From Candidatus Nomurabacteria bacterium (GTDB lineage Bacteria; Patescibacteriota; Minisyncoccia; Phycocordibacterales; UBA9973): a DNA stretch of 64,000 nucleotides. The stretch spans positions 17,496 through 81,495 of the forward strand of contig CAWHSF010000002.1 in the NCBI GenBank assembly GCA_963832025.1, written 5' to 3'. Positions 3,661 through 35,342 of the stretch are shown one piece after another. Numbering within the stretch: position 1 is the stretch's first letter; each line of letters begins with the position of its first letter. A model generated the notes under the pieces. The model was not told the DNA's origin and did not search any database. It saw nothing but the letters and a program-made list of their open reading frames with translations. Made by a program: the position numbers and the translations under genes.

Positions 3661-4791
3661 ATGAAGTATTTTCTAACTAAAACTCGAAATCAGCTGATTC
3701 GGGATTTCTATGTTTGGATTTTAAAGCCCATTTTGTTTTGTTTTGACGCGGAAAACATTCATGATTCTTTCATTCAAATCGGACAGATTATAGGTAAATC
3801 TATAATTACCAAAAAAATAACGAGTTCCTTTTTTAATTACAAAAACTCATCTTTGGAACAAAATATTGTCGGTTTAAATTTTAAAAATCCCATAGGACTT
3901 GCGGCTGGTTTTGATTACGAGGGTAACCTGACGCAAACTATGCCTTGTGTCGGTTTTGGTTTTGAAACAATTGGAACTATTACCAATAATCCATATGAAG
4001 GAAATACAAAACCCAGACTCGGAAGATTACCTAAATCACGTTCACTTTTAGTTAACAAGGGATTCAAAAATCTTGGCATTCAGAAAACTTTGGAAAAACT
4101 CAACAAAGCACATTTTGAAATACCAACCGGACTAAGTGTTGGTGTGACAAATACTCTAGCTATCTCCAGTCAAGAAGAAGCTGTCTTGGATATTTTAAAA
4201 ACATTTGAGGCGGCAGAAATTTCAAAAATTCCTTTTGGCTATTATGAATTAAATATTAGCTGTCCAAATTTACAGGTTAGCGTAGAATTTTATTCGTCAA
4301 ATAATCTGGAGGAACTTTTGAAGGCTGTAACAAAAAATAAACTAAGTAAACCGTTGTTTATAAAAATGCCAATAGATAAAACCGATTCCGAGATTCTCGA
4401 AATGCTTAAAGTTATTGTAAAATATCCGGTCACGGCTGTTGTCTTTGGTAATTTGCAAAAGAATAAAAAAGATCAATCTCTTGATCCAGCAGAAGTGGCA
4501 CGTTTTACTAAAGGTAATTTTAGCGGAAAACCAACCGAAAAAAGATCCAACGAATTGATATCTCTGGCTTATAAAACCTGTGGCAATAAATTGATTATTG
4601 TTGGCTGTGGTGGAGTGTTTAATGCAAGTGATGCTTATCGCAAGATAAAAGCTGGAGCAACGCTCGTAGAGCTTATTACAGGCATGATATTTGAAGGTCC
4701 GCAAGTAATTAGCGACATAAACCTCGGCCTCGTAAAACTTCTTAAAAAGGACGGATATAAAAATATTAGAGAGGCTGTGGGTAAAGAATAG
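3661..4791 (+). CDS. pyrD: Dihydroorotate dehydrogenase (class 2-like)
   Basis: Motifs NPIGLAAGFDYEGN, LNISCPN and GCGGV...GATLVELITGMIFEGP. I moved the start to ATG 3661 (MKYFL...) because the track start at 3622 overlaps the eno start. Confidence 0.85.
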   Translation: MKYFLTKTRNQLIRDFYVWILKPILFCFDAENIHDSFIQIGQIIGKSIITKKITSSFFNYKNSSLEQNIVGLNFKNPIGLAAGFDYEGNLTQTMPCVGFGFETIGTITNNPYEGNTKPRLGRLPKSRSLLVNKGFKNLGIQKTLEKLNKAHFEIPTGLSVGVTNTLAISSQEEAVLDILKTFEAAEISKIPFGYYELNISCPNLQVSVEFYSSNNLEELLKAVTKNKLSKPLFIKMPIDKTDSEILEMLKVIVKYPVTAVVFGNLQKNKKDQSLDPAEVARFTKGNFSGKPTEKRSNELISLAYKTCGNKLIIVGCGGVFNASDAYRKIKAGATLVELITGMIFEGPQVISDINLGLVKLLKKDGYKNIREAVGKE

Positions 4792-4801
4792 TTCCATGGA
4801 G

Positions 4802-4849
4802 CTCCAGACGTTGGACGTCTGTAAGCTTACAGACGTCCAACGTCTGGAG
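4802..4849. repeat. Perfect 48-bp palindrome (GACGTTGGACGTC family) between convergent pyrD and glycerate kinase; probable bidirectional terminator
   Basis: CTCCAGACGTTGGACGTCTGTAAGCTTACAGACGTCCAACGTCTGGAG is its own reverse complement. Related copies lie at 5215-5254 and 22893-22934. Confidence 0.9.
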
Positions 4850-4862
4850 AATTATCCACTTC

Positions 4863-6164
4863 CTATTTCTTAGTAAGCAATATCATCAAATCCGAAACAT
4901 TAGCGCCGGTCGGACCGGTCATAATCAAATCGCCGGTCTTTTGAAAAAAATTATAGGAATCAAAACGAGTTGCATAATCATTCACATCTAATCCCAATTT
5001 TTCAACTTTCTCTATCGTTTCTTTATCTACCACTGCTCCGGCCATATCACTATTGTCCATGCCATCAGATGCAAAGGAAATAAACACCGAATCATCCCCG
5101 ACTAATTTCATTTTTATGGCTTCTAGTCCCATATGTAAATTCCTGCCTCCCTGTCCCGCATTTTTGGGTACCACAACACTCGGCTCGCCTGCTGCTAGAG
5201 TTACAGAGATTGGACCGACGTTGGACACCTGCTTTAGTAGATGTCCAACGTCGGGAGAATTCGTAAATATTTTTTCGAGCGCTCTATCAACTTCATCATA
5301 AAGTTCTGTAGAAACAATATTTACTTGTAAACCAAGCTCTTCCGATTTCTTCGCCATGGCATTAATCGCAGTGGTATTTGAAACGAGGACGAAGTTGTGA
5401 ACTTTTTCAAAATATTTATCTTCCTTTGGTGTCTCTACTAATTCAAAATTTCCCAAGTTATTTTCTGTAATAATTTTTTGCGCGTCGGTAATAGTTGTAT
5501 TGTCCTTATAAGTTGGACCAGAAGCAACATTCTCAAAAGAATTTCCAGGAATATCGGAAAAAACAAGCCCAATAATCGTTGCAGGATAAGCAACTTTAGC
5601 CAATCCCCCGCCTTTTAGAAGTGATAAATGTTTTCTGACAGTATTCATTTCCGAGATTGTGCCACCCGTTTTCAAGAAGCTATTATACAGGGCAACTCCT
5701 TGTTCACATTCTCTTTCGGGACAGCAAAGTAGTGAAGATCCACCACCAGAGACTAAAACAATAATTAAATCATTTTCCGTAGAATCTTTAATTGTTTCAT
5801 ATATCTTTATTCCAGCTTGAGCGTTTACCTCGGAAGGTCTTGGGTGGGTACCCGCAAAAGTTTCAATGCGTTTGCAATCAACTTTTTCCAAACCCACCAC
5901 AGCCCCAGCTGTAATTTTGTCTCCCAAAATTTTTTCCAACGTGAGCGCCGCCTTGCAGGAAGACTTTCCGAAACCAACAACTTTTATATTTTTAAATTTT
6001 GTTAAATCGAATTGCTCTCCTTTGATACACAAAACTTCTCCTTGCAGAGAAACCGAAGAGCTTATGACTTCTTCCGTGCTGATAGCATCAAGTCCAGCTT
6101 CTATTATTTGCAATGCTAGCTTACGATTTGGAGTTGTCGCCAGTTCATCAAAATTTTTAATCAT
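4863..6164 (-). CDS. Glycerate kinase (MOFRL family; glycerate 2-kinase/hydroxypyruvate reductase-type)
   Basis: 433 aa with motifs GFGKSSCKAA, LVSGGGSSLL, LLKGGGLA, GQGGRN and SDGMDNSDMAGAVVD. Confidence 0.8.
   Translation of the reverse strand: MIKNFDELATTPNRKLALQIIEAGLDAISTEEVISSSVSLQGEVLCIKGEQFDLTKFKNIKVVGFGKSSCKAALTLEKILGDKITAGAVVGLEKVDCKRIETFAGTHPRPSEVNAQAGIKIYETIKDSTENDLIIVLVSGGGSSLLCCPERECEQGVALYNSFLKTGGTISEMNTVRKHLSLLKGGGLAKVAYPATIIGLVFSDIPGNSFENVASGPTYKDNTTITDAQKIITENNLGNFELVETPKEDKYFEKVHNFVLVSNTTAINAMAKKSEELGLQVNIVSTELYDEVDRALEKIFTNSPDVGHLLKQVSNVGPISVTLAAGEPSVVVPKNAGQGGRNLHMGLEAIKMKLVGDDSVFISFASDGMDNSDMAGAVVDKETIEKVEKLGLDVNDYATRFDSYNFFQKTGDLIMTGPTGANVSDLMILLTKK
5215..5254. repeat. 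GACGTTGGAC palindromic element inserted in-frame in glycerate kinase
   Basis: CCGACGTTGGACA-cctgctttagtag-ATGTCCAACGTCGG, followed by GAGAATT as in the 4802 copy. It encodes SPDVGHLLKQVSNVG in the intact ORF. Confidence 0.8.
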
Positions 6165-6165
6165 T

Positions 6166-7149
6166 TTATTTATCCCGTAGTGAGCTTTGCTCTACTACTG
6201 GGACTAAATTAATCGGTGTGCCGGAAATAAGATTCTTAATGTTGTCTACTGTCGTGTGAATAATTCTCATCTCTGCTTCCACCGTATCAAAGGCAACGTG
6301 CGGAGTCATGACGACGTTTGGCAGATCAAGCATCGGCACATTGTCTCCTTTTTTTATTGCTCGTTCTCCTTCTAATACGTCCAAACCGGCACCAGCGATT
6401 ATGCCATCCTCCAAACCAACAACCAGCGCGTCAGTTTCAATCAATTCTCCACGAGCAGTATTGATCAAGTAAGCTCCTTTTTTAAACAAAGAAATATTTT
6501 CTTTGTTGATTAAATGATGATTCTCTTTTGTGTAAGGCGCATGAAGTGTGACAATGTCGGACTGTGCCAAAATTTCCGGCAAGCTTTTGTAGATAAAATT
6601 ATTTTCTTTGGCAAATGCTAAATCCGGATATAAATCATAAGCTATTACATTCATACCAAAGCCACGCGCGATGTGAATAACATTTTTGCCGATTTTCCCG
6701 GTGCCGACGACTCCCAGCGTTTTTCCGCTTAAATCAAAACCTTGCACATTTACGGGAACAGTATAATCTCTATTTTCTTTCAAAGATAAAATTGCTTCTC
6801 TCGTTTTTCTGGATAAAGTCAAAATTAAGGCAAAAGTAAATTCGGCCACCGTTTCGGAACCATAAGCCGGCACGTTGCAGATTTTTATATTTTTACTGTT
6901 GGCATAAGTGACATCGATATGGTCGAATCCGGTAGAGCGCGTGATAATCGCCTTTAAATTTGGCAAGCCATCGATAATTTCTTTTGTTATGACGGAATTG
7001 GTAAAAACACAGACAACGTCTACATCCTTGGCAAGTTCCAGATTGCTTTCGCTTAATTTTTCTTCATTAATAGAAATATCTACGCCGGCTAAAAGTTCCA
7101 AAAAAACAGCTTGTTCTGATTTTGGAACCTCAAAAAATGCGATTTTCAT
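6166..7149 (-). CDS. D-isomer-specific 2-hydroxyacid dehydrogenase (lactate/glycerate/hydroxypyruvate type)
   Basis: 327 aa with NAD-binding GVVGTGKIGKNV, plus NTARGELI and MTPHVAF motifs. Confidence 0.85.
   Translation of the reverse strand: MKIAFFEVPKSEQAVFLELLAGVDISINEEKLSESNLELAKDVDVVCVFTNSVITKEIIDGLPNLKAIITRSTGFDHIDVTYANSKNIKICNVPAYGSETVAEFTFALILTLSRKTREAILSLKENRDYTVPVNVQGFDLSGKTLGVVGTGKIGKNVIHIARGFGMNVIAYDLYPDLAFAKENNFIYKSLPEILAQSDIVTLHAPYTKENHHLINKENISLFKKGAYLINTARGELIETDALVVGLEDGIIAGAGLDVLEGERAIKKGDNVPMLDLPNVVMTPHVAFDTVEAEMRIIHTTVDNIKNLISGTPINLVPVVEQSSLRDK
6171..6203. repeat. ATCCCGTAGTGA/CTACTACTGGGA hairpin repeat (short form) forming the dehydrogenase C-terminus
   Basis: TATCCCGTAGTGAGCTTTGCTCTACTACTGGGA is nearly the same as 9721-9752. 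It encodes the last residues PVVEQSSLRDK; the stop codon (6166-6168) lies immediately 3' of it. Confidence 0.8.
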
Positions 7150-7753: not shown

Positions 7754-7864
7754 AGGGGAAAATAAAACAAGTTTTTCCGGGTCGTAATTTTTCTGCTGAA
7801 AAATTTACTCCATCCTCGAGCTGTCGCTCTGCGGAGTCCCAGAAAAACTTGTTTTATTTTTCTC
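7754..7864. repeat. 111-bp structured inverted-repeat element spanning the lepA stop codon
   Basis: Left arm GGGGAAAATAAAACAAGTTTTTCCGGG (7754-7780) pairs with right arm CCCAGAAAAACTTGTTTTATTTTTCTCC (7837-7864). The 56-nt interior holds further small hairpins (TTTTTCtgctGAAAAA, ACTCC...GGAGT). Confidence 0.8.
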
Positions 7865-9704
7865 CAGCTCGCATCATTTTTAGGAACACATCTTGTGAGA
7901 TATTTACTTTGCCACGCTCTTTCATCTTCTTTTTTCCTTTTTTCTGTTTCTCGCGAAGTTTCATTTTTCGAGTAATATCCCCGCCATACATGTGTTGAGT
8001 CACATCTTTTTTCATACCACTTTTTGTGCTGGAAGAAATGATGCGTCCAAGGGCGCGACCTTGAATTTTCAAAGTAAACATTTGCCTAGGCAACAAGCTG
8101 TCCAATTTTTCTACGGCTTTTTCTGCTTCGGTTTCAGCTCTTTTTCTAGAGACAACCCTGGAAAAAGCTGGCACAACTTCATCCGCCACAAGTAAATCAA
8201 GTCTGGTCACATCTGCTTTGCGCATTTCTCCAACTTCATAAGAGATGGAAGCGTAGCCGGAAGAAGTGCTTTTAAGTTCGTCGAAGAAATTGCGCATCAG
8301 CTCACGAAGAGGCATTTTGATGGAAATGGTAGAACGGTTATCCCCGAAATTTTCTGTATCCCCCACCTCCCCTTCGTGGTCAAATAAGAGTTGCATAATA
8401 TTACCGACATATTCCACTGGAGTAATAATTTTTAAATTTACCCAAGGTTCAAAAACAGTTTCTATCAATCCATCGTCTGGAAAAAAATAAGGGGAATAAA
8501 TTTTTTCCTTCTTTCCGTTCTTTAACGTTACCTCGTAAGTGATGGATGGAGTGGTGATAACTAAGTCTAAATTAAATTCTCTTTTCAGTCTTTCGGTAAT
8601 AATTTCCAAATGAAGCATTCCTAAAAAGCCACAACGAAAACCGCGCCCCAGCGAACCACTCGATTCTTCTTCGTAAGAAAAAGCCGAATCAGAAAGTTTC
8701 AACTTACCCAAGGAAAGTTTTAATTCGGCAAAATCATCCGCATTCTCCGGAAAAACTGAAGCCCACACCACGGGCAAAGGTTGCATATAACCCGGAAAGG
8801 GCGGCAACGGATTTTTAGACATAGTGATTGTGTCACCGACTGAAGCAATGCCCGGTTTTTTTATACCCGTCACGATATAACCAGTGTCTCCGGCAGAAAG
8901 AAAATCTCTCGGCGTTTCTTCCGGAGAAAAAGTGCCAACTTCGAGAGCGGTAAATTTTTCACCGGAAACGCAAAAAAGCAAATTGTCACCTTTGCCAACT
9001 TTACCGTCAAAAATTCTCACAAAAACTATTACCCCCCGATGGTTGGAATATTTAAAATCAAAAACCAGAGCGCGCAAGTCATTTTCCCCCTCATAGGTTT
9101 CTTGCGGTGCCGGAATACGTTTGATAATTTCTTCTAAAAGGTTCGATACTCCTTCACCCGTACGTCCGGAAACCAACAAAATTTCACTAGGGTCACAATT
9201 TAAAAGTTCAACAACTTCCTCTTTTACTTCAGACACGCGAGCAAGTGGTGAATCAATTTTGGATAACACCGGAATTATTTTTAACCCTCCTGCGCGCGCC
9301 ATAGAGAGTGTCGTAAGGGTTTGCGCTTGTACTCCTTGCGTAGAATCCACAAGCAAAATGGAACCTTCTACAGCTTTTAGAGCGCGAGATACTTCATAAG
9401 AGAAATCTATATGCCCCGGAGTGTCAATGAGATTTAAAACAAATACCTCACCCGGCCTTTGGCCACCCTCTCCTTGCCAAGGAGAGGGGTTGGGGGTGAG
9501 GTCGGATTTGTATTCCATTCTTACGGGTTGCATTTTAATTGTGATTCCTCTCTCGCGCTCAATATCCATGGAATCCAAAACCTGGTCACGCATCTTGCGT
9601 GTCTCAATCGTGTGAGTAATTTCTAGCATTCTGTCAGCCAAGGTACTTTTGCCGTGGTCAATGTGCGCAATAATACTAAAGTTTCTTATATTTTCTAATT
9701 TCAT
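7854..9704 (-). CDS. lepA: Translation elongation factor 4 (LepA)
   Basis: 616 aa with AHIDHGKST and DTPGHIDF GTPase motifs, full-length LepA architecture and a basic C-terminal tail. Confidence 0.93.
   Translation of the reverse strand: MKLENIRNFSIIAHIDHGKSTLADRMLEITHTIETRKMRDQVLDSMDIERERGITIKMQPVRMEYKSDLTPNPSPWQGEGGQRPGEVFVLNLIDTPGHIDFSYEVSRALKAVEGSILLVDSTQGVQAQTLTTLSMARAGGLKIIPVLSKIDSPLARVSEVKEEVVELLNCDPSEILLVSGRTGEGVSNLLEEIIKRIPAPQETYEGENDLRALVFDFKYSNHRGVIVFVRIFDGKVGKGDNLLFCVSGEKFTALEVGTFSPEETPRDFLSAGDTGYIVTGIKKPGIASVGDTITMSKNPLPPFPGYMQPLPVVWASVFPENADDFAELKLSLGKLKLSDSAFSYEEESSGSLGRGFRCGFLGMLHLEIITERLKREFNLDLVITTPSITYEVTLKNGKKEKIYSPYFFPDDGLIETVFEPWVNLKIITPVEYVGNIMQLLFDHEGEVGDTENFGDNRSTISIKMPLRELMRNFFDELKSTSSGYASISYEVGEMRKADVTRLDLLVADEVVPAFSRVVSRKRAETEAEKAVEKLDSLLPRQMFTLKIQGRALGRIISSSTKSGMKKDVTQHMYGGDITRKMKLREKQKKGKKKMKERGKVNISQDVFLKMMRAGEK
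9446..9501. repeat. CCTCACCC...GGGGTGAGG palindromic element inserted in-frame in lepA
   Basis: CCTCACCCGGCCTTTGGCCACCCTCTCCTTGCCAAGGAGAGGGGTTGGGGGTGAGG encodes LTPNPSPWQGEGGQRPGE just before the DTPGH motif. A sibling copy lies at 32011-32077. Confidence 0.85.
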
Positions 9705-15447: not shown

Positions 15448-18426
15448 CTATAGAACGATGTTGATAAGTCTATTTTTTACGTAAATAACTTTCTTAATGT
15501 TCCGACCAGCTGTGTATTTTGAAATAAGTTCGTAAGAAATCGCTTGTTTTTTTATTTCCTCTTCGCTCTCATTGATATCTATTATAATCTCCGCTCTGAC
15601 TTTTCCATTTATCTGAATTATAATTTTTAATTTTTCATCTTGCATTAAACTTTCATCCGCCTGTGGCCAACCGGCAAGGTTGATAGAATTTTTTTGGCCG
15701 AGCATGTTCCATAATTCTTCCGTCACATATGGCGCAAAAGGTGAAAGAATTTGCAAGAATTTTTTATAGTCTTCCAAAGAAACGCTTTCTGCTTTTTCCA
15801 TTTCGGTCGCCAGTATCATCATGGAAGAAATGGCTGTATTAAAATGCATTTCTTCAATGTCCTCGGAAACTTTTTTGATAGTTTTTTGCAAAAGTTTTGA
15901 AACAGAAAAATTCTGAGTTGCTGAGCCTGCATGCTTTTGCGAAGGAGTGGCTGAGCGTAGCGAGGGACCGAGCGACTGAGCAAAAGTATCAGGCGAAGCA
16001 AGTTTCGCTCGGATTCTCCAAACTTTTTCGATAAATCTCCTAGAACCAATAATGCTTTCTGTGGACCAAGCAACCGATTGACTAAATGGCCCCATAAACA
16101 TTTCATACACGCGTAAAGTATCCGCTCCATAAGTTTTTACAATCTCATCCGGATTAATCACATTACCAAGCGATTTGGACATCTTTACTCCCCCTTCACC
16201 CAAGATCATTCCGTGTGAAGTGCGCTTTTTATACGGCTCGGATGTCGGCACCAGTTTTAAATCATATAAAAATTTATGCCAAAAGCGTGAATATAAAAGG
16301 TGAAGTGTGGTGTGTTCATTTCCTCCATTGTACCAATCAACTGGTATCCAATACTTTAAATTTTTCTTGCCTGCAAAAGCTTTTGTATTTTTTGGGTCAG
16401 TGTAGCGAAGATAATACCAGCTTGAACCGGCCCAGTTTGGCATGGTATCCGTTTCCCTCTTGGCAGGGCCTTTGCATTTTGGGCATTTTGTATTCACCCA
16501 TTTGGTAATATTTGCAAGCGGCGATTCTCCTGAATCCGTAGGTTGATAATTTTTTACTTTCGGAAGTTCTACCGGTAGATATTTTTCAGGGACAGGAACA
16601 ATTCCGCATTTCACACAATGTACGACCGGTATCGGCTCTCCCCAATAACGCTGACGAGAAAAAACCCAATCGCGAAGTTTGAAAGTTGTTTTTTCTTTTC
16701 CGCCGACAAATTTAATAATTTCTTTTTTGGCTTGTTCAGAATCTTGTCCATTAAATTTTCCAGAATTAGTCAATATTCCATCTTCGGTATAAATCGGAAA
16801 ATTATTATTTAGTTCATTCCAGGAATATCTCTGACTTAGTGGCAAATTAAATTTTTCTATCTCATTTTTTGAGAGCCAGACTACTTCGTGATTATCTTTT
16901 TCATTTTGCGCAATGTCTTCTTTTTCCCCATCCTGTAATTCAAAATAAAAAACATCGAAATGCGCAAATCTATTTAGATTTTTCGGAATATGGAAAAATT
17001 CACTATGACTTTTACCCAATTGTTTAATTAATTTTGGGCGTAAATAACCTGTTTCTTCTTTAATCTCCATGATTGCTCCTTCCACTGGAGTTTGTCCATT
17101 TTCGGGTCCCCCAGTTATGAAAGTTTCCCAATCAACTTTTTTCCACTTCAACCCAAGATATTTGTCCTCGGACCAATGTTTTACAATTGCCATTATTGCG
17201 TTACGCTCAACAATAGGTAGACTATCTCTTACCGCATCTAGTCCAGAACGCGAAACATAAACCGGTTCAATAACATTTTTTATCTCCAAACCATATTTTT
17301 TTGCAAATTCAAAATCTCTTTCGTCGTGCGCCGGCACTGCCATAATTGCACCTGTGCCATAAGTCGCGAGTACGTAATCTGCAATCCAAACTGGAATTTC
17401 TTCTTTGGTCGCCGGGTTAATAGCCTTGATGCCTTTTAGTTCAACGCCGGTTTTTGTTTTTTCTTCGGCTGTACGTTCAATATCTGTTTTATTTTTTACT
17501 TCTTTTATATATTTTTCAACTTCCGCCCAATTTTTTATTTGATCTTTTAACTTATTAACTAATTGGTGTTCTGGCGCCAATACCAAATATGTCGCTCCAA
17601 AAATTGTATCTGGACGTGTTGTGAAAACTTTAACAGCTGTAGAGCCTGCATGCTTTTGCGAAGGAGTGGCTGAGCGTAGCGAGGGACCGAGCGACTGAGC
17701 AAAAGCATCAGGCGAGACAGCTGTAGAAAATTCAATTTCCGCTCCTTCGGACTTTCCTATCCAGTTTCTTTGCGCCAGTTTTATTTGTGGTAAATAATCC
17801 ACATCATCCAAATCTTTATCCAATCGCTCGGCGTATTTTGTAATGGCGAGCATCCATTGTTCTTTCTCTCGTTTTTCTACTGGAGTGCCACAACGTTCAC
17901 AACACCCAGCGACAACTTCTTCATTAGCTAAACCGGTTTTATCTTTCGGACACCAATTAATTGCGATTTTCGCTTTATATGCCAAACCTTTTTTCAAAAA
18001 CTGTAAAAAAATCCATTGAGTCCATTTGTAGTATTTCGGGTCAGTAGTATTTACTTCCCTGGACCAATCAAAAGAAACTCCCAGAGATTTTATCTGCCGA
18101 CGAAAAGTATCGCTATTTTTTTTGGTAACGACTCGAGGATCAAGACCCGTTTTTATCGCGTAATTTTCTGTCGGCAAGCCAAAAGCGTCCCAGCCGATTG
18201 GATACAAAACATTATACCCTTCCAATCTTCTTTTTCTGGAAATGACATCCATGCCGATGTATGGCCTTGGATGCCCGACGTGCAGTCCATCACCCGAAGG
18301 ATAAGGAAATTCAATCAGACTATAATATTTCGGTTTTTTGGAAAAATCTTTGGCTTTGTATATCTGCTTTTTATCCCAAATATTTTTCCACTTTTTTTCA
18401 ATTTTTAAATGATTATATTCCTTCAC
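15448..18426 (-). CDS. leuS: Leucyl-tRNA synthetase carrying three insertions (two repeat-derived peptides and a Nudix-like domain)
   Basis: 992 aa with HIGH (HVGHPRPY), KMSKS (VKMSKSLGN), CP1 editing motifs TTRPDTIFGATY and AVPAHDERDFEFAKKYG, and RDWVFSRQRYWGEPIP. Confidence 0.93.
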   Translation of the reverse strand: MKEYNHLKIEKKWKNIWDKKQIYKAKDFSKKPKYYSLIEFPYPSGDGLHVGHPRPYIGMDVISRKRRLEGYNVLYPIGWDAFGLPTENYAIKTGLDPRVVTKKNSDTFRRQIKSLGVSFDWSREVNTTDPKYYKWTQWIFLQFLKKGLAYKAKIAINWCPKDKTGLANEEVVAGCCERCGTPVEKREKEQWMLAITKYAERLDKDLDDVDYLPQIKLAQRNWIGKSEGAEIEFSTAVSPDAFAQSLGPSLRSATPSQKHAGSTAVKVFTTRPDTIFGATYLVLAPEHQLVNKLKDQIKNWAEVEKYIKEVKNKTDIERTAEEKTKTGVELKGIKAINPATKEEIPVWIADYVLATYGTGAIMAVPAHDERDFEFAKKYGLEIKNVIEPVYVSRSGLDAVRDSLPIVERNAIMAIVKHWSEDKYLGLKWKKVDWETFITGGPENGQTPVEGAIMEIKEETGYLRPKLIKQLGKSHSEFFHIPKNLNRFAHFDVFYFELQDGEKEDIAQNEKDNHEVVWLSKNEIEKFNLPLSQRYSWNELNNNFPIYTEDGILTNSGKFNGQDSEQAKKEIIKFVGGKEKTTFKLRDWVFSRQRYWGEPIPVVHCVKCGIVPVPEKYLPVELPKVKNYQPTDSGESPLANITKWVNTKCPKCKGPAKRETDTMPNWAGSSWYYLRYTDPKNTKAFAGKKNLKYWIPVDWYNGGNEHTTLHLLYSRFWHKFLYDLKLVPTSEPYKKRTSHGMILGEGGVKMSKSLGNVINPDEIVKTYGADTLRVYEMFMGPFSQSVAWSTESIIGSRRFIEKVWRIRAKLASPDTFAQSLGPSLRSATPSQKHAGSATQNFSVSKLLQKTIKKVSEDIEEMHFNTAISSMMILATEMEKAESVSLEDYKKFLQILSPFAPYVTEELWNMLGQKNSINLAGWPQADESLMQDEKLKIIIQINGKVRAEIIIDINESEEEIKKQAISYELISKYTAGRNIKKVIYVKNRLINIVL
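15923..15996. repeat. 74-bp palindromic element, in-frame copy 1 in leuS (C-terminal region)
   Basis: GAGCCTGCATGCTTTTGCGAAGGAGTGGCTGAGCGTAGCGAGGGACCGAGCGACTGAGCAAAAGTATCAGGCGA. It is 73/74 identical to 17642-17715 and encodes SPDTFAQSLGPSLRSATPSQKHAGS. Confidence 0.92.
16780..17262 (-). other. Nudix-hydrolase-like insertion domain within the LeuRS CP1 editing domain
   Basis: GGPENGQTPVEGAIMEIKEETGY (nt 17046-17114) fits the Nudix box GX5EX7REUXEEXGU except for E->Q and R->M. It lies between the conserved LeuRS motifs FAKKYGLEIKNVIEP and GILTNSGKFNG. Confidence 0.7.
17642..17715. repeat. 74-bp palindromic element, in-frame copy 2 in leuS (entry to CP1 domain)
   Basis: Same sequence as 15923-15996 apart from one transition. 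It encodes SPDAFAQSLGPSLRSATPSQKHAGS between GAEIEF and VKVFTTRPDT. Confidence 0.92.
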
Positions 18427-18488
18427 AATTCAATCATTGTATCTAAAAAACCGCCTTTTTGCAAAGACGGTTTTTCTTTATAGAGTTT

Positions 18489-19415: not shown

Positions 19416-20323
19416 TACTCTATTTTACTCCAAACTGCTGTATTTGCCAACGAAATTAAACGTTTGTTGGATTTTTCTAAAATACAAAGTTCTCCTGCTT
19501 CTACAACCCCTTTAAATTCCTTCATCGTTTCAGAAAGAGCATAACCGAGCGAAAGTGATGAAGAATCAACCGCGTAAGAAGTCAAAATTACAAAAAGTGG
19601 TTTTTCGCTTAAAACTTTTTGCACCGCAAGTAAAAGTTTGGGCAACATATCTTCCAATTTCCAAATTTCGCCTTTCGGCCCTCTCCCAAATTTAGGCGGG
19701 TCCATAATTATCGCATCATATTTATTTCCTCTCTTCGCTTCTCTTTCCATAAATTTTAAGACATCGTCTTCAATAATTCTTAAAGGTAAATTTTCTAGAC
19801 CGGAAATTTTCTGATTTTCTTTTAACCAATTCAAGGTTTGTTTTGATGCATCTACATGTGTCACTTCCGCACCAGCACGAAGCGCAAAAAGGCTCGCAAC
19901 TCCAGTGTAGCCAAATAAATTCAAAACCTTATGCGGACGAAAATGCGAAGAATTCTTCGCATTTTCGTCCGCCAACCTTTCCTCTATGAAATCCCAATGG
20001 CTTGCCTGCTCCGGAAAAAATCCCAAATGCCGAAATGGCGTCGGCATTGCCAAAAATTTTATTCCTTTGTATTCCATTTCCCATTTATCTGTAATCTTTT
20101 TTTCAAATTTCCAACCGGCTTTCGCACCAATTTTAGAACTCCAAAATTTTCCGTCCGCTTTCGCCCACCCCTCCTCTCTCAAAGTTTTTTGCCAAACCGC
20201 ATCTTCGTACGGACGCACAAAAAGATATTTACCGAATCGCTCCAGCTTTTCCCCTTCGCCGGTGTCTAAAAGCTCATAGTCCAACCAATCCTTTGAATAA
20301 AAAATTTTAATTTGATTTTCCAT
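19415..20323 (-). CDS. Class I SAM-dependent methyltransferase (RlmI/RlmK-like)
   Basis: 302 aa with SAM-binding LNLFGYTGVASLFALRAGAEVTHVD and DAIIMDPPKFG. Confidence 0.75.
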   Translation of the reverse strand: MENQIKIFYSKDWLDYELLDTGEGEKLERFGKYLFVRPYEDAVWQKTLREEGWAKADGKFWSSKIGAKAGWKFEKKITDKWEMEYKGIKFLAMPTPFRHLGFFPEQASHWDFIEERLADENAKNSSHFRPHKVLNLFGYTGVASLFALRAGAEVTHVDASKQTLNWLKENQKISGLENLPLRIIEDDVLKFMEREAKRGNKYDAIIMDPPKFGRGPKGEIWKLEDMLPKLLLAVQKVLSEKPLFVILTSYAVDSSSLSLGYALSETMKEFKGVVEAGELCILEKSNKRLISLANTAVWSKIE

Positions 20324-21200
20324 GATTGTATTTTAATTTTAGATTCTCTGTAAGAAATAATACACCAAAGAAAAAGAAAAAGAGCGAAGTGCTTTGCCAG
20401 ATGGTCGGAATTTGATGAAAAATTATAAATGCAAAAAATAGTGTGAAAAGTGGTCCGATGCTGTTTAAGGCATTTGCTTTAGTCACGGATATGCGAGCGA
20501 TACCTTCCAACCAAAAAGCCTTAGACAGTCCTAAAATAATAAAACCATTTAATAGAATAAACCAAAAAGATTCCTTTATTTGCTGTAAAACAAGATGTTG
20601 ACCAAAGATATAAGCAATTAAAAGGATAAGTGGGGCTGCAACGATGCTACGTAAAAACAAAATACTTTCTATCGAAAAGGTTTTCGTGGCTTTTTGTTGG
20701 AAAAAATTTCCTATTGGCGCGCAGAAAGTCGCTATTAGAATAAATAAATCTCCTAAATTTAAAGAAGAAAAGTTAGGAGCAAGCACGATAACTGCTCCGA
20801 TAACCATTAATGTGGCTCCAATCTTTGATTCCAAGGAAAAAGGTTCTTTTCGAATGAGATTAAAAAATAAAAAAGAAGTACAAATTTCAAATAGAGCTAT
20901 GATACTGGCGTTTCCTGAAGTAGTTTTTGTTAATCCGAAATAATAAAAAACATAATATAAAATACCAATTGAAAATACAATCCAAAAAATATATTTCCAC
21001 AAAAGTGGATTTTTAAGTTCTGAAAATTTCTTTTTATAAATTACTATTACTAGAAAAAAGATACTGACAAAAAAAGTACTAAGGGCAAGTGAAATCATAC
21101 TCGGAAGTTCTATATACGATAAAATCGTTATTATAGGAAAAAAACTCCATATTATAGCTCCGCCAAATGTAAACAATTCTCCTTTGTGTTCTGGTTTCAT
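20307..21200 (-). CDS. EamA/DMT-family transporter
   Basis: 297 aa with ten predicted TM helices and two EamA-like halves. Confidence 0.7.
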   Translation of the reverse strand: MKPEHKGELFTFGGAIIWSFFPIITILSYIELPSMISLALSTFFVSIFFLVIVIYKKKFSELKNPLLWKYIFWIVFSIGILYYVFYYFGLTKTTSGNASIIALFEICTSFLFFNLIRKEPFSLESKIGATLMVIGAVIVLAPNFSSLNLGDLFILIATFCAPIGNFFQQKATKTFSIESILFLRSIVAAPLILLIAYIFGQHLVLQQIKESFWFILLNGFIILGLSKAFWLEGIARISVTKANALNSIGPLFTLFFAFIIFHQIPTIWQSTSLFFFFFGVLFLTENLKLKYNHGKSN

Positions 21201-22671: not shown

Positions 22672-24177
22672 TTACTCATCCAGAATTTCAAAATCACTTC
22701 CATCTTCTTTTGGAGCAACCTTTTTCCGACGGATGAAATACACGGCATAAGCAGAAGCTCCAATAAGAACAAAAGAGGTAATAAAAATTAATATCTTTCG
22801 CAGAGAGAAACTTGGGGTTGGATTATTGGAATTTTCAACATCATTTTGCAAGGCTTTAGCAGTTAGGCTGTTTACGGCAGGAATATCCATCCCAGACGTT
22901 GGACGTCTAGAAGCTTCCAGACGTCCAACGTCTGTAGGTTTATCCACAGTAGCAGTCATAATTGGGACAGTTGGTGGAGATAAGTAATCAAAAATTATAT
23001 TCCCTTGTGAGTCACTTAATTTTAAAGTATTTTCATCTGCGATGGAGAAATTTGTAATTTTTGGAGAAAGTGTAATCTTATCTTTTGAAGCCACTATTGT
23101 ATTTTTCGGAAAAACAAAACTTTTTTGTGTGCTGGATAAAATCCAACCGGAAATATCTGCACTGTAAGATGTGTTGTTGGTAAGTTCGACAAAAAAATCT
23201 CTACTGTCGCCGACATTGGAGATAGAAATATCTGCAGGAATTATTTTTACATCAATTTGATCGGTTGCATCGGGAATAAGATTCCCGGAATAATAATTTT
23301 CATAATAATCGAGAGAGACAACATAATCTCCCGTATAATAAAATGTGTGAGAAAAAGTTTTGCTATTGGTTAAATCAATTTCCTTTGAGTCTCCGTCACC
23401 AAAATTCCAAAAGTATTTTCCGAAAAATATTTTTTCTCCACCATATCCAGTTGTCGTAGCGTTGAAAGAAACGGGAATGCCAACAAAGTTAATTACTTGT
23501 CCTATGATTTTAGTTTTAATATTTGGTGACTCTGCCTGATTTTGACTCGTTGTGGCAGAAGTGACCGTGGGAGAAGAGCTATTATTTACAACGTTATTTG
23601 CCGGCAAACCACCTCCGACGACTGCATCTGAAGAGGTAGAAGAAACAACCGTATTTGCTGAAACATTTGCGACCCCTGGAGTCGGCGTAGCCCCCACCCA
23701 AGAACCATTTATTAGTTGTAAAGAATTCCCATCACCGGCTCCGCCCTCACTCGAAGTATAAGTTACAGAATCTACGACATTGCCATCTTGGTCTAAAATT
23801 TTTAATGTCGCACCGTTATTGTTTAAACTTGTGATACCTGTGTCATAGACTGTGCCGGAAAAATTTGGATTGTCCGCTAAAAAAGTATCTTTATCTCCGG
23901 CAAAAACAACATAGCTGTTTGCAGGAATAGAAAAATCTGTTTCATCATTTATCGTTCTGTTGGCAGAGCCGTCATAAATTCTCCACTTCGAAGCATCGAC
24001 AGAAACGGCACTTCCGTCAGGATTGTAAACTTCAACCCACTCTCCACTTTTACTATTTGTGGAATCCGACCCAGACAAATCGTACATGATTTCATCAATT
24101 GAAAGGCTCGCAAAAACCAAGTGATAAGAAAAAAAGAAAATAACACCAGCAAAAACTAAAATAAGTTTTTTAGACAT
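22672..24177 (-). CDS. Surface protein: signal peptide, lamin-tail domain, PKD-like domain, second LTD, C-terminal TM anchor
   Basis: LTD-like region SIDEIMYDLSGSDS...EWVEVYN...NNNGATLKILD, PKD-like YFWNFGDGDS...TGDYVVSL, second LTD FFVELTNNTS...GWIL...LKLSDSQGNI, and C-terminal helix ILIFITSFVLIGASAYAVYFI. Confidence 0.75.
   Translation of the reverse strand: MSKKLILVFAGVIFFFSYHLVFASLSIDEIMYDLSGSDSTNSKSGEWVEVYNPDGSAVSVDASKWRIYDGSANRTINDETDFSIPANSYVVFAGDKDTFLADNPNFSGTVYDTGITSLNNNGATLKILDQDGNVVDSVTYTSSEGGAGDGNSLQLINGSWVGATPTPGVANVSANTVVSSTSSDAVVGGGLPANNVVNNSSSPTVTSATTSQNQAESPNIKTKIIGQVINFVGIPVSFNATTTGYGGEKIFFGKYFWNFGDGDSKEIDLTNSKTFSHTFYYTGDYVVSLDYYENYYSGNLIPDATDQIDVKIIPADISISNVGDSRDFFVELTNNTSYSADISGWILSSTQKSFVFPKNTIVASKDKITLSPKITNFSIADENTLKLSDSQGNIIFDYLSPPTVPIMTATVDKPTDVGRLEASRRPTSGMDIPAVNSLTAKALQNDVENSNNPTPSFSLRKILIFITSFVLIGASAYAVYFIRRKKVAPKEDGSDFEILDE
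22893..22934. repeat. GACGTTGGACGTC palindromic element inserted in-frame in the LTD surface protein
   Basis: CAGACGTTGGACGTCT-agAAGCTTcc-AGACGTCCAACGTCTG encodes TDVGRLEASRRPTSG. It shares its arms and the central AAGCTT with 4802-4849. Confidence 0.88.
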
Positions 24178-24216
24178 TTGTTTTTAAATATGTTTATAAT
24201 ATGTTAAAATCATATC

Positions 24217-31975: not shown

Positions 31976-32010
31976 ATTAAATATTATACCAAAAGTTAAA
32001 ACAAATACTA

Positions 32011-32077
32011 CCTCACCCCGCCCTTCGACAAACTCAGGGCATCCCTCTCCTTGGCAAGAAGAGAGGCTGGGGTGAGG
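32011..32077. repeat. CCTCACCCC...GGGGTGAGG palindromic element, intergenic copy upstream of dnaE
   Basis: CCTCACCCCGCCCTTCGACAAACTCAGGGCATCCCTCTCCTTGGCAAGAAGAGAGGCTGGGGTGAGG shares its termini and the CCCTCTCCTTG core with the lepA copy. Confidence 0.85.
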
Positions 32078-32102
32078 TCTAATTTATGTTATCATAATCA
32101 AA

Positions 32103-35100
32103 ATGATAGAAGAAACACAATTTATCCACCTCCATACCCACTCCCATTATTCCCTATTGGATGGGCTTTCTAAGCTTGAAGATTTGGTTGATTTGGCTAA
32201 AGAAAATGACATGCCGGCGCTGGCGATTACCGACCACGGCAACATGTATGGCGCTATTGAATTCTATAAATTAGCAAAAAAGGCAGGAATAAAACCGATC
32301 ATCGGAGTAGAAGCATACATAACTACGGGTTCCCGCAAAGACAGGAATACAGAAGCTGGTGGCACAAAACGATACTATCACCTAACTTTGCTTGCAAAAA
32401 ATCTGCAGGGTTATAAAAACTTGATGCGATTGGTAACCATTTCCAATTTGGAAGGTTATTATTACAAACCGCGAATGGACAAAGAAATATTGAGACAATA
32501 TGGACAAGGAATAATTGCGCTCTCGGGATGTCTCGGTGGAGAATTGGCGCAATCGCTTGTAAACAAGGATGAAGAAAAAGCTCTAAGAATAATACGAGAA
32601 CATCAAGAAATTTTCGGCAAGGAAAATTATTTTCTGGAAATTCAAAGACATCCAAAATCTCCCAATGACGAAGAAGTGCACAAAAAGATTATTGCTTTGG
32701 GTAAAAAATTAAATATTCCTATTGTTGGAACGATTGATTCACACTACCCTTGCGCTGAAGACCGCAAAGCGCATGAAACTTTGCTCGCAATCCAGACCAA
32801 TTCCGATATTAAAGATGAAAATAAATTTTCCTTCGGTGAAGATGATTATTTTTTTGTAAATACACAGCAAGCGCAAGAACTTTTTAAAGACATTCCGGAG
32901 GCAGTAACTAATACGATGAAAATTTCCGATATGTGTAATGTCGAATTAAAATTGGGAGAATGGGTTTTCCCTGATTTTAAATTGGAAACCGGTGTTACTT
33001 ATGATGCAAAATTGCGTGAGTTAACTTATGCTGGTTTTGAAAAATTAAGCATAAAGCAAACACCCGAAATTACGGAACGCGTAGAATACGAACTAAAAAT
33101 TATTGCCGACAAAGGATATGCTCCGTATTTCTTGGTAGTCGGAGACTTGCTCCGCCATGCCAAAGAAAACGGCATTTTGAGCGCTATCCGAGGCTCCGTC
33201 GCCGGCTCGATGGTTACTTATCTTTTGCACATCACAAACATTGACCCATTGGAATATAAATTGCCGTTTGAGAGATTTCTAAATCCTTTTCGTCCTTCAC
33301 CACCCGATATAGATATGGACTATGCCGACAACCGTCGAGATGAAATGATTGAATATGTAAAACAAAAATACGGCGAAGAAAAAGTGGCGCAAATTGGAAC
33401 TTTTGGCACGATGATGGCGCGTGGCGCAGTCCGCGATGTGGCTCGAGCGCTCGCCTACCCATATACAATCGGCGACAGAATATCAAAAATGATTCCTATG
33501 GGTGCGCAAGGAATGCCGATGACCATAGACCGTGCGATGGAAATTGTTCCTGAATTAAAAGAAGCTTATGAAAAAGAAAAAGATACAAAAGAAATTATTG
33601 ATCTTGCAAAAAAACTGGAAGGATGTGTTCGTCATATTTCTGTGCATGCCGCTGGGGTGGTTATCGCTCCAAAACCAATCTATGAATACATGCCGACCCA
33701 GCTCGACCCGAAGGGTGGAAAAATTATCACTCAATACGATATGTATAGTGCCGAAGATGCCGGGCTTTTAAAATTCGACTTTTTAGGAATAAGAAATCTG
33801 GCAATATTAGCCGATGCAATTTCTCTAGTCAAAAAATTCTACGATATAAATATCAATATAAACCGTATCCCTTTGAATGATAAAAAAACTTTTGAACTTT
33901 TAGCTAGTGGGCAAACGGAGGGATTATTTCAATTAAACGGTTCCGGTATGACTAGATATTTAAAAGAATTGAAACCCACTTCTATTCACGATATCAATGC
34001 CATGGTAGCACTCTATCGTCCCGGACCGATGGAATCAATTCCTGAATATATCAAACGCAAACATAATCCAAAACTCGTAAAATATTTGGATCCAAGAATG
34101 AAAAAATTCTTGGGTGAATCTTATGGACTAATTGTTTACCAAGATGATTTACTTTTTTGCGCTATCGATCTAGCTGGCTACAACTGGGAAGAAGCAGATA
34201 AATTCCGCAAGGCCGTCGGAAAAAAAATACCGGCTGAAATGGCAGCCCAGCGAGAAAAATTTACCAAAGGAATAATTTCAAACGGTCAGACGCCGGAATT
34301 TGCCGAAAAACTTTGGAAACTTTTTGAACCTTTTCAAGCTTACGGTTTCAATAAAGCCCACGCCGCTTCATACGGCCAAGTCGCCTATCAAACAGCTTAC
34401 ATGAAGGCAAATTATCCGGTGGAATATATGACGGCAATTTTGACAGCTGAATCCGGCGATGTGGAAAAAATTGCCCAAATCATTGAAGAATGTAAAAACA
34501 TGAAAATACCGGTACTTCCACCGAATATCAATGAAAGTTTCGGGGGTTTTACATGTCTATCGGAAAAAACGGGAATAAATGTAAATAGCGAAAATAAAAG
34601 CAGTAAAATAAGGTTTGGTTTTTATACAATTAAAAATCTAGGTACCGATATTTCGGATGCCATTATTGCTGAACGAAAGAAAAATGGAAAGTTTCAATCT
34701 ATCTCCGATTTCCTGGATAGAATAAAACATAAAAATCTTAATAAAAAATCAATGGAAGCATTGATTAAATCTGGCTGTATGGATGACCTGCCTGCCGGCA
34801 GGCAGGATGGAAGCGACCGTGGAATTTTACTTGCAAATCTTGAAGCAATGCTTGAATACAATCATGAAAACGGAAAACAAAATGAAAATCAAGTTTCTCT
34901 TTTTGGCGGAACAAATAAAATATCCGCTCCGGAATTTAAATTGCAAACAGCTCCGGAAGCCACCCAGGCAGAAAAATTACTCTGGGAAAAAGAATTGTTG
35001 GGACTTTATATTTCCGGCCATCCGCTTGACCGCCTCCGTGAAAAATTAGAAAAAAGGCCATTGAATATAAAGAAGGTAAAAGAAGAATTTGGAAATGGAA

Positions 35101-35342
35101 TGCAAGTTACCTTAGCTGGCATAATCGAAACCGCGCGCCAAGTCGTGACAAAAAACAACGACCGAATGGCATTTCTAAAAATCTCAGATTTAACCGATTC
35201 CATTGAGGCTGTAGCTTTCCCTTCCATTTTTAAAGAAACAGTAGATTTATTTGTACCAGAAAAATGCATCGCTTTTTCCGGTAAAGTATCCAATCGTAAT
35301 GGAGAAAAGAGTATTATTATTGAAGCGGTAAAAGAAATTTAG
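32103..35342 (+). CDS. dnaE: DNA polymerase III alpha subunit
   Basis: 1079 aa with PHP domain FIHLHTHSHYSLLDG, polymerase core motifs (PDIDMDY, GLLKFDFLG) and a C-terminal OB-fold region. Confidence 0.93.
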   Translation: MIEETQFIHLHTHSHYSLLDGLSKLEDLVDLAKENDMPALAITDHGNMYGAIEFYKLAKKAGIKPIIGVEAYITTGSRKDRNTEAGGTKRYYHLTLLAKNLQGYKNLMRLVTISNLEGYYYKPRMDKEILRQYGQGIIALSGCLGGELAQSLVNKDEEKALRIIREHQEIFGKENYFLEIQRHPKSPNDEEVHKKIIALGKKLNIPIVGTIDSHYPCAEDRKAHETLLAIQTNSDIKDENKFSFGEDDYFFVNTQQAQELFKDIPEAVTNTMKISDMCNVELKLGEWVFPDFKLETGVTYDAKLRELTYAGFEKLSIKQTPEITERVEYELKIIADKGYAPYFLVVGDLLRHAKENGILSAIRGSVAGSMVTYLLHITNIDPLEYKLPFERFLNPFRPSPPDIDMDYADNRRDEMIEYVKQKYGEEKVAQIGTFGTMMARGAVRDVARALAYPYTIGDRISKMIPMGAQGMPMTIDRAMEIVPELKEAYEKEKDTKEIIDLAKKLEGCVRHISVHAAGVVIAPKPIYEYMPTQLDPKGGKIITQYDMYSAEDAGLLKFDFLGIRNLAILADAISLVKKFYDINININRIPLNDKKTFELLASGQTEGLFQLNGSGMTRYLKELKPTSIHDINAMVALYRPGPMESIPEYIKRKHNPKLVKYLDPRMKKFLGESYGLIVYQDDLLFCAIDLAGYNWEEADKFRKAVGKKIPAEMAAQREKFTKGIISNGQTPEFAEKLWKLFEPFQAYGFNKAHAASYGQVAYQTAYMKANYPVEYMTAILTAESGDVEKIAQIIEECKNMKIPVLPPNINESFGGFTCLSEKTGINVNSENKSSKIRFGFYTIKNLGTDISDAIIAERKKNGKFQSISDFLDRIKHKNLNKKSMEALIKSGCMDDLPAGRQDGSDRGILLANLEAMLEYNHENGKQNENQVSLFGGTNKISAPEFKLQTAPEATQAEKLLWEKELLGLYISGHPLDRLREKLEKRPLNIKKVKEEFGNGMQVTLAGIIETARQVVTKNNDRMAFLKISDLTDSIEAVAFPSIFKETVDLFVPEKCIAFSGKVSNRNGEKSIIIEAVKEI
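34787..34806. repeat. Perfect 20-bp GC-rich palindrome in-frame in dnaE
   Basis: CCTGCCTGCCGGCAGGCAGG encodes LPAGRQD in an otherwise AT-rich gene. Confidence 0.75.

Follow-up and report, generated by a model that had tools for sequence, protein, structure and literature searches.

How did a short GC-rich palindrome come to lie in frame within lepA, the gene for elongation factor 4, in an AT-rich bacterial genome, and is it translated there? The DNA analyzed is a stretch of 64,000 nt from a Candidatus Nomurabacteria bacterium (assembly GCA_963832025.1, contig CAWHSF010000002.1, positions 17,496–81,495), hereafter the window, and the palindrome occupies window positions 9446–9501. We consider it likely that this element is a copy of the pan-bacterial BoxC/PIT/TM repeat (PIT, potential intrastrand triplex) that entered a turn of the LepA G domain, where it is in frame, translated, and tolerated, and that related lineages gained it independently. 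The features concerned are the following.

7854–9704, minus strand: lepA (elongation factor 4), 616 amino acids, host of the insertion, assigned by open reading frame (ORF), structure match, Pfam, and synteny
9446–9501, minus strand: 56-nt GC-rich imperfect palindrome, from terminal repeat to terminal repeat, with the in-frame reading LTPNPSPWQGEGGQRPGE
9446–9453, plus strand: left terminal inverted repeat CCTCACCC, which pairs with 9494–9501 and on the other strand is the G-rich third-strand block
9454–9464, plus strand: hairpin 2, GGCC-TTT-GGCC, the variable module of the family, from the fold
9466–9488, plus strand: core hairpin CCCTCTCCTT-GCC-AAGGAGAGGG, the C-rich stem and first G-rich stem of the triplex motif, from the fold
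9492–9501, plus strand: GGGGGTGAGG, which forms both the right terminal repeat and the second G-rich block and is mirror-related to GGAGAGGGG, with 9 of 9 triads allowed
9494–9501, plus strand: right terminal inverted repeat GGGTGAGG, partner of CCTCACCC
32011–32077, plus strand: intergenic copy of 67 nt with the same termini; its second hairpin is longer and its core decayed, from sequence and fold

The element (window sequence CCTCACCCGGCCTTTGGCCACCCTCTCCTTGCCAAGGAGAGGGGTTGGGGGTGAGG) is ∼68% GC and is one of the few short islands of at least 65% GC in the window, the overall GC content of which is 37.4%. Its coordinates, terminal inverted repeats, and inner palindrome were re-read from the sequence and agree with the initial annotation, which had also named a sibling between genes at 32011–32077; that copy is real and has the same termini. 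The terminal inverted repeats, (A)CCTCACCC and GGGTGAGG(T), are 8–10 bp long, as in a MITE (miniature inverted-repeat transposable element). CCTCACCC and its complement occur four times in the 64 kb, all at the ends of the two copies (0.64 expected), and this count was reached in none of 100 shuffles. Folding was computed as Watson–Crick pairing only, and the triplex itself is predicted from triad rules. As single-stranded DNA, the element folds into an 8-bp outer stem around two hairpins at −20.7 kcal/mol (z = −5.2), a stability matched by none of 200 shuffles, and both strands behave alike (−20.7 and −20.1 kcal/mol, z ∼ −5). In the minimum-free-energy fold, CCCTCTCCTT and AAGGAGAGGG pair as a 10-bp stem, giving a C-rich/G-rich hairpin. 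For the sense RNA, a segment of 76 nt that includes 10 nt of flank at either end, the folding energy is −41 kcal/mol (z = −5.7). In each orientation, two of the three reading frames through the element are free of stop codons.

The window lepA product matched Thermus EF4 (5imq) over its full length (E = 2e-172), protein P0001, which is identical to it, carries all five LepA Pfam domains in precomputed annotation, and the gene order ABC transporter-lepA-DivIC-2-Hacid_dh is kept across the orthologue loci. The closest LepA matches carry the names Paceibacterota, Nomurabacteria, or Parcubacteria, and the host organism is a member of the Patescibacteria, within the Paceibacteria (Parcubacteria) and near “Ca. 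Nomurabacteria.” An identical LepA protein is on record in three sources (NCBI, ENA, and Logan), and for run ERR11523672 a separate Logan assembly gave the same gene DNA, which shows that the insert did not arise as an assembly artefact. An Rfam 15 scan of the whole window gave no family at the gathering threshold, so that no tRNA, rRNA, or other known RNA gene lies there, and at the element itself only chance-level matches were seen (E ∼0.05, 20 bits versus cut-offs of 45–100).

In the 616-aa ORF, the translated context is ...RMEYKSD-LTPNPSPWQGEGGQRPGE-VFVLNLIDTPGH, which confirms the in-frame reading first proposed between MEYKSD and VFVLNLIDTPGH. The insert is located at the tip of the β2–β3 hairpin of the G domain, which comes after switch I and runs into the DTPGH (G3) motif. 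The initial annotation gave the corresponding E. coli LepA segment as a short hairpin devoid of any such insertion, and the EF4 structures of E. coli (3CB4 and 3DEG), Aquifex (2YWE), and Thermus (5IMQ and 4W2E) are indeed gapped by 15 residues there, between YKA(S) and (K)DGE.Y.L..IDTPGH. A canonical 12-residue hairpin (E-Y-x-x-x-G-[QE]-x-[YF]-[IV]-L-N) is present in 69 of the 119 closest LepA proteins, and the inserted peptide does not align with conserved residues. The nearest relative, P0002, has 600 amino acids and an empty site and is 92.5% identical outside the loop; relative to such 600-aa orthologues, the net gain is 48 nt, or 16 codons. An AlphaFold2 model of the 616-aa protein, built from a 35-sequence alignment, was of low confidence (mean pLDDT, the predicted local distance difference test, of 48.5) and was left out of finer analysis and fold searches; it places residues 67–86 as coil between strands 61–66 and 87–96. 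Translated as the ORF predicts, the insert adds a 16-residue Pro/Gly/Ser-rich surface loop that LepA tolerates. Predicted tryptic peptides spanning it are ...SDLTPNPSPWQGEGGQR and PGEVFVLNLIDTPGHIDFSYEVSR, the latter preceded by ...GEGGQR. The earlier proposal of a repeat element read through in frame in the LepA GTPase is thus supported, but it did not foresee that the family is already described, that the same loop is filled in other species, and that the loop is a general hot spot.

Orthologous lepA DNA was compared at loci in conserved synteny, with the following states of the loop.

Window (P0001): filled by the element, read LTPNPSPWQGEGGQRPGEV, +48 nt
L002 (P0058): filled by the same element, +42 nt
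L003 (P0052): filled likewise, +48 nt
L005 (P0011): filled likewise, with the 5′ half in a different frame, +39 nt
L207 (P0016): same element, identical to the L005 copy, +39 nt
L208 (P0004): same element, inverted, +39 nt
L004 (P0002): empty site, EYKHGGQNFILN, no gain
L209 (P0034): empty site, EYSTGNEKYILN, no gain

The L002, L003, and L005 copies differ from the window copy at 4–6 of 56 nt (4–7 over all pairs). Four-fold sites of the same lepA genes differ at 58–71%, which amounts to saturation, and within the element only 1 of 12, 1 of 11, and 2 of 11 such sites differ (P = 1e-5 to 1e-3). The 54-nt elements of L005 and L207 are identical to each other, although the two proteins are only 85.5% identical and the flanks show synonymous differences directly up to both junctions, as judged by eye. 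In these two genes, the element begins one base later in the codon, so that its 5′ half reads TSPPAPLLS and not LTPNPSPWQ, and the frame is restored by a hairpin that is 2 nt shorter (CCTG-T-CAGG versus CCTTG-G-CAAGG). The reverse complement of the L208 element differs from the L207 element at 1 of 54 positions, sits between the same two junctions, and is read TSPDLWPPSPDRRGAGGEV. The peptides given by the different frames and orientations (LTPNPSPWQGEGGQRP, TSPPAPLLSGEGGQRP, and TSPDLWPPSPDRRGAG) are entirely different. Near-identical DNA is thus read in two frames and both orientations, and it is the DNA rather than the peptide that is conserved. All alleles keep the frame (net +39, +42, or +48 nt) and contain no stop codon, which argues that the element is translated rather than bypassed.

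The distribution of filled and empty sites favors several gains. Carriers are 81–89% identical to one another, and the nearest relatives of each carrier have empty sites, the carrier–empty pairs P0001–P0002 and P0004–P0034 being 92.5 and 95.4% identical. Both P0004 and P0034 are present in JGI sample 3300037810. In a neighbor-joining tree calculated with the loop masked and 200 bootstrap replicates, P0004 and P0034 pair with 100% support, P0001 groups with six empty-site proteins (84.5%), and carriers are monophyletic in none of the replicates. Empty sites keep a canonical G-[QE]-x-[YF] turn across the tree, as in the P0034 codons GAA TAC TCT ACC GGT AAT GAA AAG TAT, and carriers are without it. 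The insert takes the place of six native codons in carriers of the L005 type and of three in those of the window type, and G-E-V of the turn comes from the end of the element itself, GGT GAG GTN. Since deletion could not restore the canonical residues and the nearest relatives are empty, several independent gains are favored, with at least five or six as the preferred count (P0001; P0058; P0052 with P0095; P0011 with P0012; P0016; P0004). From phylogeny, junctions, and DNA identity together, we infer that the element was probably acquired independently at the same loop in both orientations. Four loop states are found in the P0004 clade (97% support), which indicates fast turnover: the element in inverted form, the empty site, a different and double insert rich in GC (P0098), and, in P0042, a small GC hairpin.

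The core of the element, CCTCACCCC..CCCTCTCC-loop-GGAGAGGG..GGGGTGAGG, is that of a known repeat, named BoxC, then PIT element, and then TM_ECO (Holder et al. 2015, PMC4666352), after earlier work by Bachellier and colleagues in the 1990s and by Hoyne and Maher in 2000 (PMC4666352). For TM motifs, 3,610 copies were counted over 262 proteobacterial genomes, cyanobacteria abound in related G/C-rich motifs, and the single strand forms a purine-motif triplex in vitro (PMC4666352). The motif has no promoter or terminator activity, is “always intergenic” in E. coli K-12, and shows no association with mobile elements or phages, although it is linked to local instability (PMC4666352). On the plus strand, the window element has the layout CCCCTCTCC-loop-GGAGAGGGG-TT-GGGGGTGAGG. 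With G.G-C, A.A-T, and T.A-T as the allowed purine-motif triads, all nine triads of CCCCTCTCC / GGAGAGGGG / GGGGTGAGG are allowed, and the triad set is the same as that of the E. coli consensus. The strict TM_ECO expression, CCCTCNCCC N3-6 GGGNGAGGG N3 GGGNGAGGG (PMC4666352), had no match in the window. Relative to TM_ECO, the element has GGAGAGGGG in place of GGGAGAGGG, a register off by one G, and loops of 7 and 2–3 nt; because of this register shift and the longer first loop, it was filed in the broader G/C-rich triplex-motif class and not in TM_ECO sensu stricto. The unit of the candidate phyla radiation (CPR) type is closed by the complement CCTCACCC and has a second small hairpin, and this closure means that both strands show the order CCTCACCC - CCCTCTCC - GGAGAGGG - GGGTGAGG.

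A search pattern drawn from the element and its lepA relatives (CCTCACCCC N2-6 CTCTYC N3-10 AGGAGAGGG, ∼23.5 specified bases) was run against 596 Gb of genome contigs and matched at least 120 loci, where fewer than about 2 were expected by our own calculation. The matches listed come from genomes of 30 to 74% GC and cover Proteobacteria, Actinobacteria, Bacteroidota, Cyanobacteria, Chloroflexota, Patescibacteria, Verrucomicrobiota, Planctomycetota, Nitrospirota, Armatimonadota, and Ignavibacteria, with Enterobacter, Xanthomonas, Pseudomonas, Polaromonas, and Bifidobacterium among the genera. The same architecture recurs in units from cyanobacteria, Bacteroidota, and other Patescibacteria (L017, L019, L037, L070, L071, L077, L088, L114, and L117). 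With a related enterobacterial double copy as the query, every one of the 5426 complete E. coli genomes searched gave matches (median, 28 places), none of them annotated. The element is thus dispersed and multi-copy, with two copies in the window, at least 120 genome loci, and at least 120 viral stretches, and the sibling at 32011 is far from the only other occurrence, as copies turn up in the lepA genes of further species, in genes other than lepA, across many phyla, and on viral contigs. The copies are not confined to intergenic DNA, the window copy lying inside lepA and others in RarA, Dus, HsdR, FemAB, and FG-GAP genes; intergenic siting is a habit of the family in E. coli, not a structural criterion.

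As a separate observation, the stretches with a triplex-type core on IMG/VR viral contigs (at least 120, L210–L329) have viral status as assigned by IMG/VR, with host contamination possible. Some of these loci are tandem arrays of a 72-nt unit (e.g. L230:1700-2900, IMGVR_UViG_3300020057_000061), and one 43.5-kb viral contig holds more than 12 core copies. This abundance runs contrary to the published BLAST result for TM motifs (PMC4666352).

The site of entry is itself permissive. Of 119 close orthologues, 43 have a loop of more than 14 residues, as do 20 of 68 Patescibacteria orthologues that are more distant (29–36%). Gains reach +39 residues, and many of the inserts are unrelated and mostly palindromic in DNA; the β2–β3 loop of Patescibacteria LepA is a hot spot for insertions in general. 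Triplex-type cores also stand in frame in RarA/MgsA (L082), Dus (L019, Nomurabacteria), FemAB (L078), and an FG-GAP protein (L117) and, in the opposite orientation, in an HsdR gene (L012). Survival of the insert can thus be attributed to structural tolerance together with a stop-poor, Pro/Gly-rich translation.

Other inserts were seen in LepA. In the P0014/P0022 group, the lepA loop has a 27-residue insert (..TPPQQGGEDSSPPKLGGVPEGGG..) that is a repeat of two hairpins, CACCCCTCCTCAACAAGGAGGGG and TCCTCTCCTCC...GGAGGAG, and this repeat also occurs within other large genes of related genomes (L175:3221-3300, L206:5591-5660, and L208:8028-8100). In distant Patescibacteria, the same loop holds long AT-rich low-complexity inserts, e.g. 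..HPKILNPKSEILNKSQISNSKNLGFSASDLEFADSKQ.. and ..FPISNFQFPINDPISNENSKLKIENSNS.. (loci L131, L136, L152, L180, L182, L183, L193, L199, and L202), which look like other repeat families. The LepA alignment has four or five further hot spots, at columns of about 255–275, 463–471, 485–511, and 563–590, where recurring inserts include TPSLLPLAKGEVPKAEGV after IPEP, PSTGSGQAG in KN|GK, IYPHTNSLVAPEARLKNDQRKSVRV, and GLRHDGVGLRPDEVG; these are probably other GC-rich repeat families read in frame.

A copy has entered the DNA for the β2–β3 turn, replacing a few native codons and adding a net 16, and we propose that it persists by virtue of the permissive loop and the two open frames per orientation rather than through any need for the peptide. 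Classical cut-and-paste transposition is unlikely, as no target duplication was found and no nearby transposase was noticed. Insertion may instead have been driven by structure or microhomology, for example by template switching or illegitimate recombination anchored at the GGTGAGG end, which would supply the conserved Gly-Glu of the turn. A constant GGTGAGG junction, a variable other junction, and both orientations are what would be expected of a one-ended event anchored on the terminal repeat. This step, which we infer, is the weakest of the explanation. As to microhomology at a native GGTGAG, the closest empty site, that of P0034, reads GGT AAT GAA; four-fold divergence from its carrier sister has already reached 47%, so that this reading neither supports nor excludes it. 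No conversion tract indicating interspecies transfer by homologous recombination was visible in the L005/L207 flanks by eye, and no parent autonomous element with shared termini was noticed in the window or the loci, although no systematic search was made for one.

Several points weigh against this account. The target-site duplication expected of a MITE was not seen at any of the six lepA junction pairs or at the intergenic copy, and no insertion machinery was found for the element. The AT-rich motif TATTTGTTTTAAAT (YILN/FVLN codons), considered as a common target beside the GGTGAGG end, was rejected as a general one, as it recurs (13 of 14) only at the intergenic copy of the same genome and the other ∼50 element ends in AT-rich loci are at background. 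The element is low in copy number, with two copies in the 64-kb window and, over ∼700 kb of related loci, only a few that are not in lepA, and six or more insertions at one 36-nt target by such an element are hard to explain without a targeting mechanism; tolerance alone hardly accounts for repeated insertion at the same 36 nt. Translation of the insert is read from the intact ORF only. With the strict TM_ECO expression unmatched, family membership holds at the level of the broad class, and convergence may be conceivable. The TM triplex has not been detected in vivo, even in E. coli (PMC4666352). Lastly, a constant 3′ and a variable 5′ junction would also fit one old insertion with in-frame trimming, and P0052 and P0095, carriers that are sisters, indeed have unlike 5′ junctions.

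Such a single insertion would have taken place in an ancestor of the Paceibacteria group and been inherited vertically, with many in-frame losses, one in-situ inversion between the terminal repeats, and near-invariance kept by selection on DNA or RNA structure or by gene conversion. The 3′ junction (GGT GAG GTN and a [FY] codon) is alike in all carriers, the inverted L208 allele has exactly the junctions of L005 and L207, as a flip in situ would give, and P0052 and P0095, which differ in the loop as well as the junction, show that junctions can drift after insertion. Frequent deletion of TM motifs has also been reported (Holder et al., PMC4666352), and conservation of the family core across phyla implies some sequence constraint. 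We nevertheless consider this history unlikely. The closest empty sites hold the native turn (EYSTGNEKYILN in P0034 and EYKHGGQNFILN in P0002), which deletion from ...GAGGEVFVLN cannot recreate, and the carriers never came together as one clade in the 200 bootstraps. Moreover, an element frozen at four-fold sites, the variable hairpin 2 included, should not be lost repeatedly. By eye, a copy in Dus from another Nomurabacteria genome (L019) resembles the window copy about as closely as the lepA copies resemble one another, so that no lepA-specific lineage is needed.

Co-option of the insert is also conceivable, with the added loop or the very stable mRNA structure serving LepA through, for example, ribosome contact or translational pausing during folding of the G domain, and with selection for that role maintaining it. 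The strong fold of the 76-nt mRNA segment (−41 kcal/mol, z = −5.7) and the expansion of the loop in about one third of Patescibacteria LepA proteins are in keeping with such a role, which is, however, quite improbable given that the peptide is wholly different between frames and orientations, that the closest relatives manage without an insert, that the inserts at the loop are unrelated to each other, and that the same element is also present in non-coding DNA and unrelated genes. To the idea that the element is not translated at all, being skipped by ribosomal bypass as in T4 gene 60 or “byp,” or is an assembly or chimera artefact, we give hardly any credence. A GC-rich hairpin insert in an AT-rich genome does resemble the mitochondrial byp elements, but the frame is kept in every allele, including the one in which a changed 5′ junction is offset by a hairpin 2 nt shorter, which would be unneeded under bypass; as for an artefact, independent assemblies from NCBI (GenBank), ENA, JGI, and Logan concur on the lepA inserts. 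Independent entry of a translated and tolerated BoxC/PIT/TM copy thus remains the preferred explanation. A bolder form of it is put forward only tentatively, namely that BoxC/TM repeats in Patescibacteria are actively mobile and site-selective, entering repeatedly at the lepA Gly-Glu turn via GGTGAGG termini in either orientation, with no transposase footprint and with phage carriage between lineages conceivable. If true, they would be a general source of new surface loops in proteins of reduced genomes.

The intergenic copy at 32011–32077 lies between two divergent genes, upstream of both, and has the same orientation on the plus strand. Its hairpin 2 is swapped for GCCCT-(11 nt)-AGGGC, and its triplex core is degenerate, as judged by eye. 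On the same side, the lepA copy (flank at 9434–9445) and the intergenic copy (flanking region 31984–32010) share an identical 12-nt flank, TTAAAACAAATA on the plus strand, i.e. TATTTGTTTTAA, which represents the FVL codons of lepA; the probability of this match by chance is ∼1e-5 by our own estimate. The flanks on the other side are weakly alike (9 of 13). Flank sharing was not seen for the copies of any other genome compared. A simple recent duplication does not fit, since the two window copies differ much internally.

Other repeats were observed in the window. A second palindrome family, with core CAGACGTTGGACGTCTG, is present at 5215–5254, 22893–22934, and 4802–4849; two of its copies are in frame, in ORFs 4866–6191 (minus strand, 442 aa) and 22675–24183 (minus strand, 503 aa), and the third is at the 5′ end of ORF 4345–4851 (minus strand). 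In an informal comparison, it had no obvious sequence in common with the 56-nt element. Identical 47-nt GC-rich segments, TTGCGAAGGAGTGGCTGAGCGTAGCGAGGGACCGAGCGACTGAGCAA, are found at 15937–15983 and 17656–17702, both in frame in the same 993-aa ORF (15451–18429, minus strand) and read FAQSLGPSLRSATPSQ. A perfect 40-nt palindrome, GCGGACGAAAATGCGAAGAATTCTTCGCATTTTCGTCCGC, stands in frame at 19933–19972 in ORF 19418–20332 (minus strand). At 34771–34826, the GC-rich palindrome CCTGCCTGCCGGCAGGCAGG is in frame (..DDLPAGRQDGS..) in a 1088-aa ORF (32076–35339, plus strand), putatively DnaE-like from its N-terminal HTHSHYSLLDG motif, and in P0060 a peptide of the same type, GDLPGRQAGN, is inserted at another hot spot of LepA.

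Few short bacterial repeats are conserved as widely as BoxC/PIT/TM repeats, and in the published view these are intergenic and unlinked to mobile DNA. To our knowledge, they have been an orphan family for some 30 years, with no demonstrated mobility or function. The lepA series of filled and empty sites, with flanks diverged up to the junction, lets the junctions be read directly, and movement of the repeat thereby becomes testable. In the literature searched, there was no report of the repeat in Patescibacteria, of in-frame BoxC/TM copies, of such inserts in CPR bacteria, of repeated occurrence at a single site with two frames and either orientation, or of abundance on viral contigs. The repeat family itself is already known; what is new is the Patescibacteria host, the site in a conserved gene, and the copy predicted to be translated. 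Small palindromic repeats would be a steady source of extra loops in Patescibacteria, even in a core translation GTPase, and such loops matter for annotation, alignment-based phylogeny, and structure prediction in this group.

In sequence, the element has the same blocks as BoxC/PIT/TM repeats, a CCCTCTCC hairpin with GGAGAGGG followed by GGGTGAGG, mirror-related to the first G block, with the complement CCTCACCC on the other side; a palindromic both-strand variant is also known in that family. Both are dispersed and multi-copy, vary in presence between relatives, and have no associated transposase. The element differs from BoxC/PIT/TM repeats in its register, off by one G, its longer first loop, its second small hairpin, and its 8-bp terminal repeats, and in its occurrence in Patescibacteria, within a conserved gene, with predicted translation and with recurrence at a single codon-level site.

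Yeast mitochondria have GC clusters and byp elements, mobile palindromes rich in GC that spread into the coding regions of AT-rich genomes, where they are skipped by ribosomes or sited in variable regions; ribosomal bypass is known for T4 gene 60 and for the GC-rich byp inserts of Magnusiomyces mitochondria. The lepA element differs from these in keeping the frame in every allele, which argues for translation. REP families are species-specific, whereas the lepA-type element is conserved much more widely. Like MITEs, REP/BIME, and intragenic ERIC elements, it is small, non-autonomous, and hairpin-forming, with terminal inverted repeats, and such elements are sometimes intragenic with open frames (PMC10969869 and PMC2759123). 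It differs from MITEs and REPs in that there is no target-site duplication, no parent insertion sequence, RAYT, or transposase was identified, and the GTAG-type REP head is absent.

Many genes of Rickettsia hold palindromes inserted in frame, the Rickettsia palindromic elements, or RPEs (Ogata et al. 2000, in the summary of PMC10969869). Going by that summary, RPEs too are in-frame palindromes in unrelated genes, including conserved ones, are translated into added surface segments compatible with the fold, and belong to a reduced, AT-rich genome (PMC10969869). In the same account, RPEs are ∼100–150 bp long, restricted to Rickettsia, and have a conserved peptide per family (PMC10969869), whereas the lepA element is 54–67 nt long and cross-phylum and its peptide varies. 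Functionally, the closest known system is that of the RPEs; by sequence, it is the BoxC/PIT/TM repeats.

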